Source: a virus (Duplodnaviria > Heunggongvirae > Uroviricota > Caudoviricetes). From it: a stretch of 30,275 nt of DNA. The notes under the pieces are model-generated. The model was not told the origin of the DNA, made no database searches, and saw only the letters and a list, made by a program, of their open reading frames with translations. Both the position numbers and the translations under genes were made by a program. Positions 3,605 to 29,602 of the stretch are shown here, piece after piece (the stretch's first letter is position 1; every line of letters starts with the position of its first letter). The stretch spans positions 1 through 30,275 of the IMG/VR virus record IMGVR_UViG_3300031994_000015. One strand, written 5' to 3'.

Positions 3605-4539
3605 AAATAACAATTGATACAAAAAATGGTGAAGTAAAAGTAAATGGTAAGTTACTTAAAGAAGCACCTGAACATTATAAACAAATTGCTGAATATACTT
3701 TAAGGTTAGCATATCAAGATAATTATCCTCTTTCTGATTATGAAGAGGATTGTATGTGGATGTCATATAGATATTGTATTGGTAGACATACAATAGCTTC
3801 ACATATGCATGCTAATGAAATCTGGAAGAATTGTAAAGGTCGTATGTCTAAAGAACGTCAATTGTTTACAGCTTTTGATATCAATAGAGAAATTGAAAGC
3901 TCATTGATGTTTATGAAGCCATACTTTCATTTTCCATCAACTTCTCTTAATAAAATTTATACACCAGCTGTAGATATTGTTTGTCAGTTCTTGGAAGATT
4001 ATGATATTAAATCAATTGAAGATTTTATTAAATATCGTGATGTACATGTTATATTAACTGATAATGAAAGAGGTTACAAGTTTGAAACCGTAACTTGGGA
4101 AGAATGGCTTAGACCTAGACTTTTAAAATTAATGCAAAGATTTTATAATAATGATGCACTATCAGAAGATTATGCATGGAAACATTATCTATCTTGGGTT
4201 AATAATGAAGATGATTATGGGGCATTAGGGAATCAAATATCAGAATTAATAAAAGATATGCCAAGAGCTGACCATTATTATTTTCATGATTTTGAAGATT
4301 TGTTTGTTTGGAATGATTTAGTACATTGTTTTGATTATGAACATTATCATAAATCAATTCTTGTAGATGGATCAGAAGTTGAATGGTTCTGGGCTTGGAC
4401 TAATAATTTAGAAAAACACGATGATGGGTATTATTACAGATCTTTTGGTTATCACCAAATAAGAGTTCCTGTAAATGAATGGAATGGTAATTGTAATAAA
4501 TATATACCAAATGAATCTATTAAGAAAGATTTATATTAA
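3601..4539 (+). CDS. hypothetical protein
   Basis: 312-aa ORF. Confidence 0.85.
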   Translation: MKITIDTKNGEVKVNGKLLKEAPEHYKQIAEYTLRLAYQDNYPLSDYEEDCMWMSYRYCIGRHTIASHMHANEIWKNCKGRMSKERQLFTAFDINREIESSLMFMKPYFHFPSTSLNKIYTPAVDIVCQFLEDYDIKSIEDFIKYRDVHVILTDNERGYKFETVTWEEWLRPRLLKLMQRFYNNDALSEDYAWKHYLSWVNNEDDYGALGNQISELIKDMPRADHYYFHDFEDLFVWNDLVHCFDYEHYHKSILVDGSEVEWFWAWTNNLEKHDDGYYYRSFGYHQIRVPVNEWNGNCNKYIPNESIKKDLY

Positions 4540-5040: not shown

Positions 5041-5346
5041 ATGGCAAAAGATGATATATTAGGAGGAATGGGAGTATCAAGAGGACCTATGGTTGATCCT
5101 ACAAAATATCCTCGTATTACTTGTGATAAATGTGGACATCATGTTTTTAGAAGTGCAGTAATTATATACAATATTCCTGGAATAGCAGTAGGTAATGGTA
5201 CTGAAGATATACCTTATCCTGTTCCGGTATATGTATGTGATAAATGTGGAGAAATTATCAAGACTGTTCGTGATGAACTTGATAAGATTGAAGCAGAAAA
5301 AGAAAAGAATAAAGAAGCAACTAAAGGTAGTTCATTAATACTTTAA
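5041..5346 (+). CDS. zinc-ribbon protein
   Basis: Two CDKCG motifs. Confidence 0.8.
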   Translation: MAKDDILGGMGVSRGPMVDPTKYPRITCDKCGHHVFRSAVIIYNIPGIAVGNGTEDIPYPVPVYVCDKCGEIIKTVRDELDKIEAEKEKNKEATKGSSLIL

Positions 5347-5347
5347 T

Positions 5348-5620
5348 ATGGAAATAAAATTATTTAATAGAGATGGTGCTAATTTAAGATTGGTATCAGA
5401 AGATGAAAAACTTTGGCAATTCAAAGTTGATTTGGATCATCAATATATATTTGATTATATGAGATATGAGTTTGCAGAAGATAATAAGACAATTCAAATG
5501 ATTGATCCTTCTGGTGGCCCATATTTAACTATAGGAACAAAGCTTAATAATGATTATGTTATTGATGCCTTTGTTGAAGTAGATGATATTTTATATATTC
5601 ATACTAACAAAATAGAATAA
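5348..5620 (+). CDS. hypothetical protein
   Basis: 90-aa ORF. Confidence 0.75.
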   Translation: MEIKLFNRDGANLRLVSEDEKLWQFKVDLDHQYIFDYMRYEFAEDNKTIQMIDPSGGPYLTIGTKLNNDYVIDAFVEVDDILYIHTNKIE

Positions 5621-13581: not shown

Positions 13582-14273
13582 ATAAGCCAATTAGAAATAT
13601 ACTTTGTTATTCTCATTATGATTTTGATAATATAATGAGAGATCACTGTTGGACAGATAAACTTCCTGAAGGGGTTTCTGCAATATCAATATGTTCTCCA
13701 AATGAGGGTGATCTAGCAGAACATTGGTTTAAGAAAGAGCATAAAGATGGATTAACTAGTTCAAGAGTATTTAATCTTGATATTGATGATTTAAGTCCAT
13801 TTTGGTTTGAAAATCATGAAAGTAAATGTTATGATGATGCTTTAGATTTATTTAATGATGGAAAAATTAAAGAGTCAAACAGATATTTCAACTATCTCTA
13901 TATATCTGGTCCAAACAGAGAATGGGTGGATATTGTACATGCTCTTGACTATGAAGAAGCATTTGACCTCGCAAAATGGATTGATTTTAGAATCAAACAT
14001 GATGAAACAATTTATATACACTGCGCAGTCGGGGCTTCAAGAAGTCAAGGTGTTGTAAGATATATTGTTGATACTTATAAATATGATTATGATATTAGAT
14101 TGAATCCAAACAATCCTAATAATACATATAATCCACATGTATTGATGATGTTGAAACGTGCATATATGAATAGTGATTTTTATTCTTGTATAACACGTGA
14201 TGATGAACATGATTATTTGAATTATACAGAACCAATGAAGTTTAATAAAGATATTAAAATCAATTTAGTATGA
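13578..14273 (+). CDS. protein-tyrosine/dual-specificity phosphatase-like protein
   Basis: IHCAVGASRS = HCX5R(S/T) P-loop. Confidence 0.85.
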   Translation: MNKPIRNILCYSHYDFDNIMRDHCWTDKLPEGVSAISICSPNEGDLAEHWFKKEHKDGLTSSRVFNLDIDDLSPFWFENHESKCYDDALDLFNDGKIKESNRYFNYLYISGPNREWVDIVHALDYEEAFDLAKWIDFRIKHDETIYIHCAVGASRSQGVVRYIVDTYKYDYDIRLNPNNPNNTYNPHVLMMLKRAYMNSDFYSCITRDDEHDYLNYTEPMKFNKDIKINLV

Positions 14274-14464
14274 CAGATATAAAAGCAATTGCAGAAGAAT
14301 TAGTTAATCTAACAGCACAAGAAGTAAATGAACTTGCTATGGTTATGAAACATGATATGGATATACCAGCAGTTCGTTATGAAGAACCCAAATATAGAGA
14401 TAATAAAAATCTTACACCAAAGCAATATGGTCAAATGAAAAATTATAAACACAATAAAAGATAA
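14270..14464 (+). CDS. ribosomal protein L7/L12 N-terminal (dimerisation) domain protein, lacking the C-terminal domain
   Basis: MTDIKAIAEELVNLTAQEVNELA resembles the Bacteroidetes bL12 N-terminus; followed by an unrelated basic tail. Confidence 0.8.
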   Translation: MTDIKAIAEELVNLTAQEVNELAMVMKHDMDIPAVRYEEPKYRDNKNLTPKQYGQMKNYKHNKR

Positions 14465-16000: not shown

Positions 16001-18565
16001 ATGATTATAATTAAACGAGATGGTACTCCCCAAGAATATTCTTTCTTGAAAATCGCGGATGCCGTACATAAAGCGTTTGCTTCGGTAGACCAAGATGTTC
16101 CAGATAAGTTTCTTGAGCAAGTAAAAGATTCAGTAGAAAAGCTAATTATCAAGAACAATGGTAATGGTACAGGTATAGAAGAAATTCAAGATTGCATTCA
16201 AAATGAGCTTATTAAGCGTAATAAGTTTGAAGTTGTAGAATCATTTATTGCATATCGTAAAGAACGTGAACGTATTCGTTTGGAAAATACCGATTTGATT
16301 AAACAAATTGAAGAAAAGCTTTATGCAACAAATGTACAAAACCAAAATGCTAATTTAGATGAAGACTCTTTTGGTGGTCGTTTAGGAGAAACTTCAGGTG
16401 TTGTCGCTAAAGATAGAGCTCTTAAGAAGATGTCTAAAATTGGTCGTAAGAATCATGAAGGAAATATGGTTTATATCCATGACTTAGACCATTGGTTAGT
16501 AGGTGATCACAACTGCTTGTCATATCCATTTGATAGTAAACTTAAAGATGGTGTTGTTACAAGACAAACTGATGTTAGAACAGCCGGTTCAATTAATACT
16601 GCTATGCAACTTGTTGCTGTTAATTTCCAATTACAATCATTACAACAATTTGGTGGTGTTGCCGCTACACATATTGACTGGTCTATGGTACCTTACGTCC
16701 GTAAATCATATAGAAAACACTATATCTTTGATTGGATTAAGAAACAACCAGAATTTTCAGATCTTGATATTTTAGGTTTAACATATGAAGAGCTTAAACA
16801 CTGGGTTGAAAATATGATTACTAAGTTTTATTTAACTACAAAACTTAAGGATGAAGATTTTACATTTGCTAATAAGAATCTTGATAATCAATTACGTCAA
16901 GAATCATTATTAGATACAAAACAAGAAACATACCAAGCGGTTGAAGGTATGTATCATAATTTAAATACTCTTCAATCACGTTCAGGTAATCAACTTCCAT
17001 TTACTTCTATAAATTATGGTACTTGTACAGAATTAGAAGGACGTATGGTAACTAAAGCCCTTCTTGAAGTTTCTATAGAAGGACTTGGTAAACATGGTGT
17101 AACATCAATATTCCCTTGTGGAATTTTTCAAATTAAAAAAGGAGTTAATTTCAAACCAGGTGATCCGAACTATGATTTGAAGCGTCTTGCATTGAAATCA
17201 ACAACTATGCGTATTTATCCTAACTATGCTAATTGTGATTGGTCAAATCAAGTAAATTGGTTTAATGCTGATAGAAAACAAAAACAAGAATATATTGAGT
17301 CATTATCTGATCATGATTATGTACAATTGACAAGTGCTATTGAAGATGAACCAAAAATATGTTTTGATAAAGTTGGTTTATATGTTGATGATAGTAAACG
17401 AATTCGTGTAGATATGACAGAACGTCCTATTGAATATTTCTCTACAATGGGTTGTCGTACTGTAAATGGTCTTGATATTAATGCATTTGATAATTTCAAG
17501 AGAAACGTACAATGCATTATGGATGGTAGATATGATGATATAGATGATGTGTTCTCAAGTGTTATTAAAGATGGTCGTGGTAATATTTGTCCTACAACAA
17601 TTATTATGCCAACACTTGCAGCTATGACTCGTAAGAAACTTGAAAAGAAATGGGAAGATTCTGGTGCTGAATATGTTAAAGGACCTGAATATGAAGAAAT
17701 GATGTTCTCTGAATTTATGAAACTTCTCGACAAGAAGATTCATGAGGCTAAAGATATGTTACTTGAACGTTTCAATCATATTTGTTCACAATCACCAAAA
17801 TCTGCTCGTTATATGTATGAAAATCATACTATGGCTGGATATCATGAAGAAGAAGGAATTATTTCAGCTCTTAAGCATGGTACAATTGTTATTGGTCAAT
17901 TAGGTATGGCCGAAACTCTTCAACTTTTATTTGGTTATGATCATACTACAAATAAAGGAATGGAATATGCTAAGAAGATTGAACAATTATTCTTAGATAG
18001 AACCTCAGAATTCAAAAAAGAATATAAACTCAATTTTGGTGTTTATTATACTCCTGCTGAATCATTATGCCATACAGCTATGAAGAAATTCCGTAAAGCA
18101 TTCCCTCAATATTGTCTTGAAAATGTAACATATTACATTAAGAAAGATGGTGAAAAGAAAGAGAAAGAATATTTTACAAACTCTATTCATGTACCAGTTT
18201 ATTATGAATGTGATCCATTTAAGAAGATTGATATTGAAAGTCAATTGACAACTTATTCAAATGCCGGTTGTATTACTTATGTAGAGTTACCAAGTATATC
18301 ATTCAATAATATAGATGGTGTTGAAAAAATAGTTGATTATGCTATTGAACATGATATCCCTTATTTTGCATTGAATTTCCCTCTTAATAGATGTGCAAGA
18401 TGTGGTGAACCTATTTATGATTCTGATTTAGAAGAATGTCCAAAATGTGGTTGCAAGAAAATAATTAGATTAGGTCGTGTAACTGGTTATCTTTCTACAA
18501 CAGTTGAACATTTTAATAAAGGTAAACAAGATGAATTTTATGATAGAGTAAAACACATGAAATAA
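16001..18565 (+). CDS. nrdD: anaerobic (class III) ribonucleoside-triphosphate reductase
   Basis: N-terminal ATP cone (IIKRDG), YIHDLD, TMGCRT, YYTPAESL, C-terminal CxxC..CxxC and RVTGYL glycyl-radical motif. Confidence 0.96.
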   Translation: MIIIKRDGTPQEYSFLKIADAVHKAFASVDQDVPDKFLEQVKDSVEKLIIKNNGNGTGIEEIQDCIQNELIKRNKFEVVESFIAYRKERERIRLENTDLIKQIEEKLYATNVQNQNANLDEDSFGGRLGETSGVVAKDRALKKMSKIGRKNHEGNMVYIHDLDHWLVGDHNCLSYPFDSKLKDGVVTRQTDVRTAGSINTAMQLVAVNFQLQSLQQFGGVAATHIDWSMVPYVRKSYRKHYIFDWIKKQPEFSDLDILGLTYEELKHWVENMITKFYLTTKLKDEDFTFANKNLDNQLRQESLLDTKQETYQAVEGMYHNLNTLQSRSGNQLPFTSINYGTCTELEGRMVTKALLEVSIEGLGKHGVTSIFPCGIFQIKKGVNFKPGDPNYDLKRLALKSTTMRIYPNYANCDWSNQVNWFNADRKQKQEYIESLSDHDYVQLTSAIEDEPKICFDKVGLYVDDSKRIRVDMTERPIEYFSTMGCRTVNGLDINAFDNFKRNVQCIMDGRYDDIDDVFSSVIKDGRGNICPTTIIMPTLAAMTRKKLEKKWEDSGAEYVKGPEYEEMMFSEFMKLLDKKIHEAKDMLLERFNHICSQSPKSARYMYENHTMAGYHEEEGIISALKHGTIVIGQLGMAETLQLLFGYDHTTNKGMEYAKKIEQLFLDRTSEFKKEYKLNFGVYYTPAESLCHTAMKKFRKAFPQYCLENVTYYIKKDGEKKEKEYFTNSIHVPVYYECDPFKKIDIESQLTTYSNAGCITYVELPSISFNNIDGVEKIVDYAIEHDIPYFALNFPLNRCARCGEPIYDSDLEECPKCGCKKIIRLGRVTGYLSTTVEHFNKGKQDEFYDRVKHMK

Positions 18566-27850: not shown

Positions 27851-28126
27851 ATGGGAATAAATAGAAAAATCAAACGAGGAACTTTAGGTCACCGAGATGA
27901 TCCTTTGGTTATAGAATACCAGAATAAGTATAAGATTGGTAAAGGTCTTGTATTTGCCGCTTTAAGAGCTTTTGGTGATTCTAAATATACTCATGAGTTT
28001 TGTGAATTTATTGTTGAATGGCAAAAAACAAATAAAACTTCCGGTATCAGTTTTACCTATCTTGTAGAAGAGTTTGAAGGAACTGGTCATGGAGTAGTTA
28101 TTGAAAATAAATTGAATGCTGAATAA
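27851..28126 (+). CDS. hypothetical protein
   Basis: 91-aa ORF after promoter. Confidence 0.75.
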   Translation: MGINRKIKRGTLGHRDDPLVIEYQNKYKIGKGLVFAALRAFGDSKYTHEFCEFIVEWQKTNKTSGISFTYLVEEFEGTGHGVVIENKLNAE

Positions 28127-28170
28127 CGTTTTACTATATAATATTATGTTTTACCTTTGAATAGTAAAAT

Positions 28171-28242
28171 GCCCCGGTAGTTCAACGGATAGAACAGGAG
28201 TCTTCTAAACTTCTGATTTGGGTTCGATTCCCAACTGGGGTA
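28171..28242 (+). tRNA. tRNA-Arg(UCU)
   Basis: Cloverleaf; anticodon arm GGAGT-CT TCT AA-ACTTC; T loop TTCGATT; no encoded CCA. Confidence 0.9.
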
Positions 28243-28265
28243 CAATTTGATAAACTAACACATTT

Positions 28266-28339
28266 GGCCCAGTAGCTCAATGGATTAGAGCACTTGTCTA
28301 CGAAGCATGGGGTTGTAGGTTCGAGTCCTACCTGGGTCA
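28266..28339 (+). tRNA. tRNA-Arg(ACG)
   Basis: Cloverleaf; anticodon arm CTTGT-CT ACG AA-GCATG (one mismatch); T loop TTCGAGT. Confidence 0.85.
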
Positions 28340-28340
28340 C

Positions 28341-28520
28341 AAATAGTTGGGATGTAGGCTTGGAAGCAGCCATCATCTAAGGAACAAAAAGATATGATTA
28401 AAGTAAGTGGTTTAATAAACTCCGATGGTATGAATTTGGAAACGCGTCACCTTAATTGGGAACTGTCGGAAACGATTTTATCAATGAAATAACATTTGCG
28501 TAACAGCGCACCAACTATTT
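28341..28520 (+). ncRNA. 23S rRNA L11-binding domain (H43-H44, GTPase-associated centre) mimic with 112-nt insert
   Basis: GGATGTAGGCTTGGAAGCAGCCATCATCTAAGGAA...TGCGTAACAGCGCAC aligns to 23S nt ~1055-1104; closed by perfect 10-bp stem AAATAGTTGG/CCAACTATTT. Confidence 0.85.
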
Positions 28521-28523
28521 AAT

Positions 28524-28595
28524 GCCCCGCTAGTTCAATGGATAGAATAAGTGACTACGGATCATTTGATGAGCGTTCGAATCGTTCGTGGGGTA
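28524..28595 (+). tRNA. tRNA-Arg(ACG)
   Basis: Cloverleaf; anticodon arm AGTGA-CT ACG GA-TCATT; T loop TTCGAAT. Confidence 0.9.
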
Positions 28596-28615
28596 CAAAT
28601 TGAGAATGCCAAAAT

Positions 28616-28689
28616 ATTCTTGTAGTTTAATGGTAAAACGCTTGGGATCGATCATTGAAGAAATACGAGTTCGAATCTCGCGCAGGATA
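28616..28689 (+). other. degenerate tRNA-like element (possible TCG anticodon) nested in a larger stem
   Basis: Good D arm (GTTT-AATGGT-AAAAC) and T arm (CGAG-TTCGAAT-CTCG); imperfect acceptor and anticodon arms. Confidence 0.55.
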
Positions 28690-28834
28690 AAGTAGGTTAC
28701 TTGCAAGGTTCTCAATACTCCCATTGGAATAGTAAGTGTACAATTTCTATCTAATGGCCAAGTTAAATGGTTGTATGTATTGGGGTTGGTGCATACGTAA
28801 AATTAATTGATGTAAATCATACAGCAACCACCAT

Positions 28835-28909
28835 GGCCGTGTGGCTCGAAATGAATTAGGCACCTCTCTTCTAAAGAGGATGATGCGGGTTTGAATCCTG
28901 TCACGGTCA
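28835..28909 (+). tRNA. tRNA-Arg(UCU)
   Basis: Anticodon arm CCTCT-CT TCT AA-AGAGG; acceptor GGCCGTG/CACGGTC; atypical D loop and TTTGAAT T loop. Confidence 0.85.
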
Positions 28910-28912
28910 CAA

Positions 28913-29039
28913 AAACTAATACCTTAGTACGATCAATAAATTGGAATACTACGTAGTTAGCTAATCTTATAACGATACATAATAAAGAGTATTAAGCGGA
29001 GTATTTTGGGTGAAGAATCGGAATTCCCAATATTAGTTT
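28913..29039 (+). ncRNA. putative structured RNA with AGUA/GAA (sarcin-ricin/loop E-type) motif
   Basis: 9-bp closing stem AAACTAATA/TATTAGTTT fills the whole inter-tRNA gap; AGTA-CGAT...ATCG-GAA. Confidence 0.45.
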
Positions 29040-29045
29040 ATTTAT

Positions 29046-29228
29046 GGGGATGTAGCTCAGAACTTGGACAGAGCGCGATAAAACGAATGTCGTGGTGGAA
29101 AATGTCTTGAAGGAGAAATCCAGGAGTTAAGTTTGCGGAAGCACCGAAAATGATAGGAATATTAAGTAGGGAAGCGCGTTTTATGTACCACCTTAAACAT
29201 AGCGTGGGTTCGAATCCCATCATCCCTA
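29046..29228 (+). ncRNA. tRNA-like RNA with anticodon arm replaced by a ~130-nt domain
   Basis: Acceptor GGGGATG/CATCCCT, D arm GCTC/GAGC, T arm GTGGG-TTCGAAT-CCCAT; 129 nt between D and T arms. Confidence 0.75.
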
Positions 29229-29233
29229 CATAT

Positions 29234-29305
29234 GCTCTCATAGTTCAAAGGAAAGAATACGAGTTTCCTAAACTTGAGATGTAGGTTCGAATCCTACTGG
29301 GAGTA
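29234..29305 (+). tRNA. tRNA-Arg(CCU)
   Basis: Cloverleaf; anticodon arm CGAGT-TT CCT AA-ACTTG; T arm GTAGG-TTCGAAT-CCTAC. Confidence 0.9.
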
Positions 29306-29335
29306 CTGATTTATTAACTTAAAATTTGATAATAT

Positions 29336-29602
29336 ATGTCTGATAAAGATTTTTGGACTGAAGTTTATTTGCATGCTGTAAAAGAATGTATCACTAAACA
29401 TTGTGGAGATATAGATACATTAGAAAAATTTGAAGCTCAAAATGTAGATATTGATGAACATTTCGAATGTCATTGTGGATATCTTGCAGATATGGCATTA
29501 GAACATTTTAAAGAAAAAATGAAAGAATTTGCAGAAGATTCTAAAAAAGATATAAAGAAAAAGGAAGAAACTAAGAAAAGAAATAAAGAATCATTCAGAT
29601 AA
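29336..29602 (+). CDS. hypothetical protein
   Basis: 88-aa ORF. Confidence 0.75.
   Translation: MSDKDFWTEVYLHAVKECITKHCGDIDTLEKFEAQNVDIDEHFECHCGYLADMALEHFKEKMKEFAEDSKKDIKKKEETKKRNKESFR

Follow-up and report, generated by a model that had tools for sequence, protein, structure and literature searches.

What is encoded in the space between two neighboring arginine tRNA genes of a very large, uncultured tailed phage? The phage (Caudoviricetes) is represented by IMG/VR record IMGVR_UViG_3300031994_000015, a sequence of 158 kb that is 56% complete according to CheckV and has a G+C content of 29%. The first 30 kb of this record, 30,275 nt in full and hereafter called the window, were analyzed, and the initial annotation of the window proposed that the locus produces an RNA imitating the part of 23S rRNA to which ribosomal protein uL11 binds and where translation factors dock, the GTPase-associated center (GAC). 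Translation factors, tRNAs, and some ribosomal proteins are all known from phage genomes; if the proposal is true, viruses would in addition act on the translation machinery in a new way, through an independent copy of a functional domain of rRNA. Is the likeness to rRNA genuine? Is it shared by other phages? And what could such an RNA be good for?

Anatomy of the Element

Sequence comparison indicates that positions 28341-28520 of the window are the gene for a stand-alone structured noncoding RNA of ∼180 nt that copies the GAC fold. The gene, which like its parts and the two tRNAs beside it is on the plus strand, takes up the entire gap between two tRNA-Arg(ACG) genes recognized by ARAGORN: the first, at 28266-28340 (Rfam tRNA, 62.5 bits), touches it with 0 nt to spare, and the second, at 28524-28596 (Rfam tRNA, 51.1 bits), follows after 3 nt. 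The two ends of the element, 28341-28350 and 28511-28520, form a closing stem of 10 bp, AAATAGTTGG being the exact reverse complement of CCAACTATTT, and within this stem are found GTTGGGATGTAGGCTTGGAAGCAGCCATCATCTAAGGAA(C) and (T)GCGTAACAGCGCACCAAC. The inner half of the stem is equivalent to the top of helix 42 (H42): 28346-28350 correspond to positions 1051-1055 of 23S rRNA (E. coli numbering is used throughout), and 28511-28515 to 1104-1108.

Enclosed by the stem are the equivalents of H43, including the 1067 loop (1057-1081; 28352-28376, from a gapless alignment to E. coli rrlH), of the 1082-1086 turn (28377-28381), whose tertiary pair, assigned from the family counts, is here C1082-G1086, and of the 5′ strand at the base of H44, i.e., G1087, A1088, A1089, and C1090 (28382-28385, from the pair counts in the family). 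There follows an insert of 112 nt, peculiar to a subtype of the family and ending in UUU (28386-28497, delimited by the alignments), after which the H44 hairpin and its 3′ strand are resumed (1091-1103; 28498-28510, from the rrlH alignment), with A1095 at 28502. In this arrangement, G1087 pairs with C1102 (28509) and C1090 (28385) with G1101 (28508), while U1060, A1061, and G1067 fall at 28355, 28356, and 28362, respectively.

Two hairpins can be drawn in the insert. Hairpin 2 (28421-28470), taken from the centroid fold, consists of a 9-bp stem, UCCGAUGGU/ACUGUCGGA (28421-28429/28462-28470), with an inner AAUU/AAUU, GG/CC helix. Hairpin 1 (28397-28416), with arms AUUAAA and UUUAAU and a loop of 8 nt, was recognized by eye and is absent from the predicted folds; both arms are identical in all three copies of the subtype, so that covariation has no bearing on it. 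The folding energy of the element as a whole is modestly unusual (z = −2.5). The 3′ strand of the subtype, GCGCA, also permits a shifted H44 register (G1091-C1102, C1092-G1101), which is the one preferred by RNAalifold; this register would compete with the native GAC fold, and homology backs the native one.

Likeness to the GTPase-Associated Center

The sequence of rrlH from E. coli K-12 was fetched and compared with both halves of the element. Positions 28346-28384 together with 28497/8-28515 align to 1051-1108 with no gaps, and 44 of the 58 positions are identical. The uL11-binding determinants, namely, 1082-1086, U1060-A1088, and the base-triple residues G1071 and C1072, are all present. 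Everything that the initial annotation had listed is found in the sequence where it was said to be: the perfect closing stem, the gapless match to 1051-1108, the basal helix re-paired as GUUGG/CCAAC, C-G at 1082-1086 with A at 1061 and G at 1067, and the 9-bp stem in the insert.

With the GAC of bacterial 23S rRNA (top of H42, H43, and H44; the 58-nt uL11/thiostrepton fragment, 1051-1108), the element shares the helices and the tertiary pair 1082-1086, and its family has in common with the GAC the invariant U1060-A1088, G1071, C1072, A1077, G1093/A1098, and A1095. It differs from the ribosomal GAC in that it is free-standing in a tRNA array, with a closing stem of its own and no continuation into H42, and in having a 112-nt domain after 1090, a Watson-Crick pair at 1090-1101, and G at 1067. 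A1067 matters for the contacts with factors and with thiostrepton and is not needed for uL11 binding; the G found in this copy therefore makes faithful docking of factors doubtful. There is no rRNA sequence beside the element, the flanks being tRNA genes, and the bacterial large-subunit model RF02541 has no match anywhere in the 158-kb record.

A Family Spread over Many Phage Lineages

Is this a peculiarity of one phage? A first scan of IMG/VR with an exact pattern from the window's own 5′ half gave one near-identical copy, L002, in a 435-kb contig. Looser scans of the same database with GAAGCAGCCATCATYTAARGAGT and TTTRGCGTAAYAGCACACC gave 51 and at least 118 contigs, respectively, and a script located both halves in at least 139 places, corresponding to at least 113 distinct elements and at least 111 distinct cores. 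A third member of the window's subtype, L261, resides in a 376-kb contig that is 98% complete. When one genome per prokaryote species was scanned, 34 hits were obtained, of which ∼27 are real members; these are mostly in MAG contigs (Bacillota, Bacteroidota, Pseudomonadota, and other phyla) and in a few isolate assemblies, e.g., Flintibacter muris. A hit in Citrobacter freundii (L299) was discarded as a chance match within a coding region. The relatives thus number more than 110 distinct ones in viral contigs of IMG/VR and ∼27 in MAG or isolate contigs. So wide a distribution, over phages and contigs belonging to many phyla of bacteria, fits a universal target.

Cultured phages have it too. 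With a typical member as the query, blastn revealed unannotated intergenic copies in Serratia phage BF (L306, 1494-1743), Cronobacter phage GAP32 (L308, 1490-1739), the Erwinia pEa_SNUABM phages, Xanthomonas XbC2 and XacN1, Pectobacterium CBB, and Pseudomonas phage pf16 (KU873925; L307, 1494-1688, between tRNA-Asn and tRNA-Pro), among others. For the subtype discussed here, the region of the tRNA array matched cultured phages in blastn through its tRNAs only. One 8.3-kb MAG contig (L282) carries two members, at 3999-4346 and 5207-5388, ∼860 nt apart and with inserts of 286 and 120 nt.

Membership was assessed with a covariance model built from 43 members, from which the window, L002, and L261 had been left out. 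Over its full length (positions 1-174 of 174), the model matches the window at exactly 28341-28520, with a score far beyond chance (82.7 bits, E = 3e-25), and finds no second copy in the 158-kb record; L002 and L261 score ∼77 bits; pf16, GAP32, and BF score 83-97 bits; and the genuine E. coli 23S rRNA (1046-1113) scores 51.3 bits. Sequence comparison thereby places the element in an atypical subtype of three members (window, L002, and L261) of a family found in many phage lineages. The typical members (L064, L017, and L193, as well as those of pf16, GAP32, and BF) agree with it in core, closing stem, and insertion site, and also in tRNA context and strand. The subtype departs from them in the core by A1089, by the C1090-G1101 pair, and by the lack of a purine before G1091.

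Covariation and Conservation

Statistics on the core refer to 111 distinct cores among the matches listed, which could be aligned without any gap. The pairs 1051-1108, 1052-1107, and 1053-1106 each occur in all four Watson-Crick combinations. At 1057-1081 there are 93 A-U and 15 C-G pairs, at 1058-1080 there are 66 U-A, 21 A-U, 17 G-C, and 4 C-G pairs, and the tertiary pair 1082-1086 is U-A in 48, C-G in 44, and A-U in 9 cores (21, 16, and 4, respectively, in the alignment of 46 members described below). The covarying positions are outside the fixed letters of the search patterns or at degenerate pattern positions.

Other positions do not move at all. U1060-A1088, G1071, C1072, A1077, G1093, U1094, A1095, and A1098 are unchanged in the 111 listed cores, the pairs G1091-C1100 and C1092-G1099 are invariant, and 1087-1102 is G-C in every one of the 111, an invariance that is partly inflated, since the exact patterns used to collect the members are themselves parts of the core. 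In the 1093-1098 loop, no change was seen at 1093-1095 or at 1098, although the search tolerated two mismatches. Position 1067 is freer, being A in 84, G in 24, and C in 3 of the listed cores.

The initial annotation had asked whether homologues would display compensatory changes or random decay. A set of 46 members was aligned with MAFFT and scored against the stated structure, with 500 shuffles and slid partners as controls. Paired cells amount to 89.5%, versus 66.9% in the shuffles, and the covariation score is 0.555, versus 0.142 in the shuffles (none of the 500 reaches it) and 0.11-0.16 with slid partners. Double-sided changes occur in 20 of the 26 pairs, including all ten of the closing stem. 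Covariation is seen in all three helices (H42, H43, and H44), at the tertiary pair 1082-1086, and where the insert begins and ends. As had been supposed, the element reproduces the pairing of the GAC, tertiary as well as secondary. Even within the small subtype two compensatory changes can be recognized: G28346-C28515 of the closing stem and U28429-A28462 of the 9-bp insert stem are both replaced by C-G in L002 and L261.

The Insert

Where exactly does the insert enter the GAC fold, and does it stay there? In 109 of the 111 listed cores, the 5′ half ends in GAGU, position 1101 is A, and the 3′ end of the insert is UUU plus a purine, while in this subtype the 5′ half ends in GAAC and 1101 is G. 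The U1090-A1101 pair of those 109 cores and the C1090-G1101 pair of the subtype are compensatory, which sets the insert between 1090 and 1091, i.e., at 28386-28497. The initial annotation had given its length correctly, 112 nt; its placement of the insert between 1089 and 1090 is to be moved by one position. Insertion site and terminal UUU are common to subtype and family.

In typical members, the first four bases of the insert pair with the four before the UUU linker, and they do so with covariation: in the 46-member alignment the first pair of this basal helix is G-C in 21, A-U in 14, and U-A in 7 members. Both the helix and the purine after the linker are missing in the subtype. A covarying helix at the insert base and a conserved linker suggest a retained branch rather than an intron, and splicing of the insert appears unlikely; neither the window nor the loci of eight other members match any of the intron families (group I/II) of Rfam.

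Inserts vary from 37 to 370 nt among the listed members, with a median of 135 nt, and some of them have recurrent modules, GUGCGAAAUG...UGAUGUGCC and GUCACCCC-hairpin-GGUAAGGA. The insert of the window lacks the former and bears merely a loose likeness to the latter. A different kind of content is found in four members (L048, L146, L179, and L279), whose inserts measure 312-315 nt in three cases and 121 nt in the fourth: these contain GUACGAGAGGA, the sequence of the sarcin-ricin loop, and such RNAs accordingly join both rRNA elements of the factor-binding site. The element of the window has no sarcin-ricin loop in its insert. Beyond that loop, a blastn-short comparison of all inserts with E. 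coli 23S rRNA gave scattered 9-16-mers with E values of ∼0.01 to 1. One of them, GGAAACGAU of this insert versus 23S 1025-1033 (E = 0.9), was taken as chance. A likeness of hairpin 2 to 5S rRNA (CCGAUGGUA ... GGGAACUG) was likewise set aside: the two strands pair with each other and change in step, and there is no match to the 5S family of Rfam.

The insert also contains, wholly within it, an ATG open reading frame of 32 codons (28394-28492), open in all three members of the subtype. Between the three copies there are ∼1 synonymous and ∼6 nonsynonymous differences, and the ATG lacks a Shine-Dalgarno sequence in front of it; the frame is therefore probably not coding.

The tRNA Neighborhood

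The association with tRNA genes is a trait of the family. tRNA genes are present in the fetched loci of 78 of the 113 listed members and within 100 nt of the element in 52 of them; in 24 cases a tRNA is at most 10 nt upstream, and in 20 at most 10 nt downstream. All 611 tRNAs in these loci are on the strand of the element and 0 on the opposite one. Since tRNAs of various specificities are found next to the element in the family, arginine is peculiar to this phage, whose record has no tRNA genes other than five for tRNA-Arg (UCU twice, ACG twice, and CCU; window 28171-29306). Such an all-arginine array could supply codons, or could counter a nuclease attacking tRNA-Arg. Outside the tRNA genes, no terminator-like sites were found in 28126-29602.

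Does any protein travel with the element? Within 5 kb on either side of ∼110 loci, no recurrent neighbor was detected, the best cluster being present in 6 loci. Genes for uL11 and uL10 were found neither in the 158-kb record nor in the relative of 376 kb (98% complete), and a protein partner would thus have to be supplied by the host or by some other part of the phage genome.

The array has further curiosities. A sixth, degenerate tRNA-like sequence is at 28616-28689 (28.9 bits, for a cutoff of 29). Another, at 29043-29233, has an insert of ∼130 nt between the D and T arms, and it is conserved, with 93% identity over 191 nt in L002 (1772-1961). Between tRNAs, at 28913-29039, a further RNA can be drawn whose ends form a stem of 9 bp and which has a bulged-G-like motif, AGUA/GAA (CCUUAGUACGAUC ... 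GAUCGGAA); with no GAGA tetraloop, a fold that does not surpass those of shuffled sequences (z = 0.17), and a sequence not conserved in L002 or L261, it is a weak candidate for a sarcin-ricin mimic.

What Might the RNA Do?

The reading that we prefer, and to which we give slightly better than even chances, is that the element yields a free mimic of the GAC, processed together with its tRNA neighbors, that captures host uL11 and/or factors recognizing the same site. Expression, processing, uL11 binding, and an effect on the host are what we infer here from fold, family membership, conservation, and tRNA context. The RNA would probably be cotranscribed with the all-arginine array and then released by the host enzymes responsible for maturation of the tRNAs on either side, namely, RNase P together with RNase Z or exonucleases. 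Because the 3′ end of the upstream tRNA abuts the element, processing of that end would set the 5′ end of the RNA; the downstream tRNA being 3 nt away, the RNase P cut at its 5′ end would set the 3′ end. Release of this kind had been suggested at the outset, and the location, with gaps of 0 and 3 nt, fits it. The two ends would then fold as a GAC copy, with the top of H42, H43, H44, and the tertiary contacts, and the 112-nt subtype-specific domain would branch off H44 after 1090. Off the ribosome, the uL11-binding surface of such a molecule may capture host uL11 and/or the factors that recognize the uL11-RNA site. A partner common to all hosts is suggested by the wide range of these hosts and by the absence of a linked protein gene, and uL11 is the obvious candidate.

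Would the RNA instead protect the ribosomes? Bare or bound to uL11, it might soak up agents that attack the GAC, such as thiopeptides or the toxins of defense or competition systems, and so keep host ribosomes available to phage translation. A parallel would be the tRNA arrays of phages, believed to make good the loss of tRNAs to nucleases of the host, and the element sits within such an array. Moreover, a toxin acting at exactly this site exists, namely, the bacterial Tre23, which ADP-ribosylates H44 around 1095-1098 (PMC8661411), and this makes a protective decoy a live rival, although in our estimation an unlikely one. The absence of change at 1093-1095 and 1098 in a search that tolerated two mismatches speaks in its favor, as does the copying of the sarcin-ricin loop, a classic toxin target, in four members. 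On the other hand, this copy has no such loop in its insert, no linked gene points to a particular threat, and the RNA would have to compete with thousands of ribosomes; we know of no antiphage system directed against the GAC. If the RNA is a decoy, unknown host defenses against the base of the ribosomal stalk, or viral control of uL11-dependent signaling, would come into view.

Or, is the target uL11 itself? As a sponge, the RNA would strip uL11 from ribosomes or withhold it from them, with weaker activation of RelA and a weaker stringent response as the result. The initial annotation had also thought of ribosomal protein operons, which might be derepressed. The requirement of uL11 for RelA activation suits this idea, as do a uL11-binding fold conserved down to its tertiary pairs, the freedom of A1067, which is dispensable for uL11 binding, to vary, and the failure to find a uL11 gene in the phage. 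We nevertheless regard it as rather improbable: uL11 is mostly bound to ribosomes, with a small free pool; ribosomes without it translate more slowly, which would harm the phage too; and the strict conservation of the 1095 loop, together with the sarcin-ricin copies elsewhere in the family, would be superfluous for such a role.

A more elaborate possibility, which must be called speculative, is that the RNA and host uL11, perhaps with uL10-bL12, make up a free "mini-stalk" that traps, misactivates, or redirects translational GTPases, RelA, or toxins. Were this true, one RNA molecule would suffice to reconstitute the entire cleft in which factors dock, in those relatives that also bear the sarcin-ricin loop.

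Improbable, too, and more so than the readings above, is that the insert is the working part, through a binding site for some partner or through the ORF at 28394-28492, and that the GAC fold is a stable scaffold coated with protein. The insert is variable and lineage-specific, from 37 to 370 nt, modules recur in it, and the ORF is open in all three members of the subtype. Set against this are the changes in the ORF, unlike those expected from purifying selection, the want of a Shine-Dalgarno sequence ahead of its ATG, and the consideration that a scaffold alone needs no near-identity to rRNA in the exposed loops. Finally, a captured and decaying piece of host 23S rRNA, or an intron-interrupted one, with no function of its own, is scarcely credible in spite of the high identity to rRNA, as such a relic, which the initial annotation had already dismissed, appears contradicted by the covariation and breadth of the family: the ends are re-paired through a covarying stem, variation preserves the structure through more than 110 members, there is neither flanking rRNA nor a match to RF02541 or to intron families, and the element is always on the strand of the tRNA genes.

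Relation to Known RNAs

Has this RNA been seen before? With Rfam 15, whether the gathering thresholds or E values up to 10 were applied, tRNAs and noise were all that the element itself gave, and eight member loci gave tRNAs only. A description of this RNA, or of any phage copy of an rRNA domain, was not found by full-text searches of the literature, and the papers on virus-encoded ribosomal proteins make no mention of such an RNA; the ncRNAs from the Grad-seq of ΦKZ are different RNAs (PMC8545117). Within these searches, neither an Rfam family nor a paper describing it came to light, which supports the novelty that had been claimed for the element.

Two groups of known RNAs invite comparison. 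The rplJ (L10) leader (RF00557) and the other autoregulatory mRNAs of ribosomal proteins likewise imitate an rRNA site of the stalk region and bind a ribosomal protein off the ribosome. However, these leaders are cis-acting in bacterial ribosomal protein operons and only loosely rRNA-like, whereas the element is a near-exact copy placed between tRNA genes, has no ribosomal protein gene downstream, and does not match Rfam at E values up to 10. Phage tRNA arrays, with their spare tRNAs against anticodon nucleases, and ToxI-like pseudo-antitoxin RNAs (PMC3475682) are likewise copies produced by phages, either of RNAs of host translation or of regulatory RNAs, and are thought to counter host attack; unlike spare tRNAs and decoys of the ToxI kind, the element copies an rRNA domain, for which no such phage copy was found described.

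The family is widespread and strongly constrained, and since phages in culture that infect Pseudomonas, Cronobacter, Serratia, Erwinia, or Xanthomonas have it, its role is directly testable. For structural work, the element offers itself as a natural, compact, and stabilized GAC construct.

Other Features of the Phage Genome

Given the link between uL11 and RF1, recoding of stop codons was considered and rejected: reading TAG or TGA as sense changes the ORF coverage from 0.65 to 0.66 and 0.69, respectively. The window encodes an NrdD-like anaerobic ribonucleotide reductase (16001-18565), which suggests an anaerobic host, and a phage IF-1 (2122-2340; Pfam PF01176, E = 2e-25). A 64-aa ORF at 14270-14464 has a subthreshold likeness to the N-terminal dimerization domain of bL12 (17.1 bits by hmmscan and 16.6 in the genome search, for a cutoff of 25), and a similar short ORF, also below threshold at 19.6 bits, is found in the 376-kb relative (G001 126087-126161; L309); docking of such a product on uL10, if it takes place, would be of interest. 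Outside the window, at 35690-36078 of the record, ARAGORN recognizes a tmRNA gene with the tag peptide ANDELVDEAWLDSWEYRMAA.
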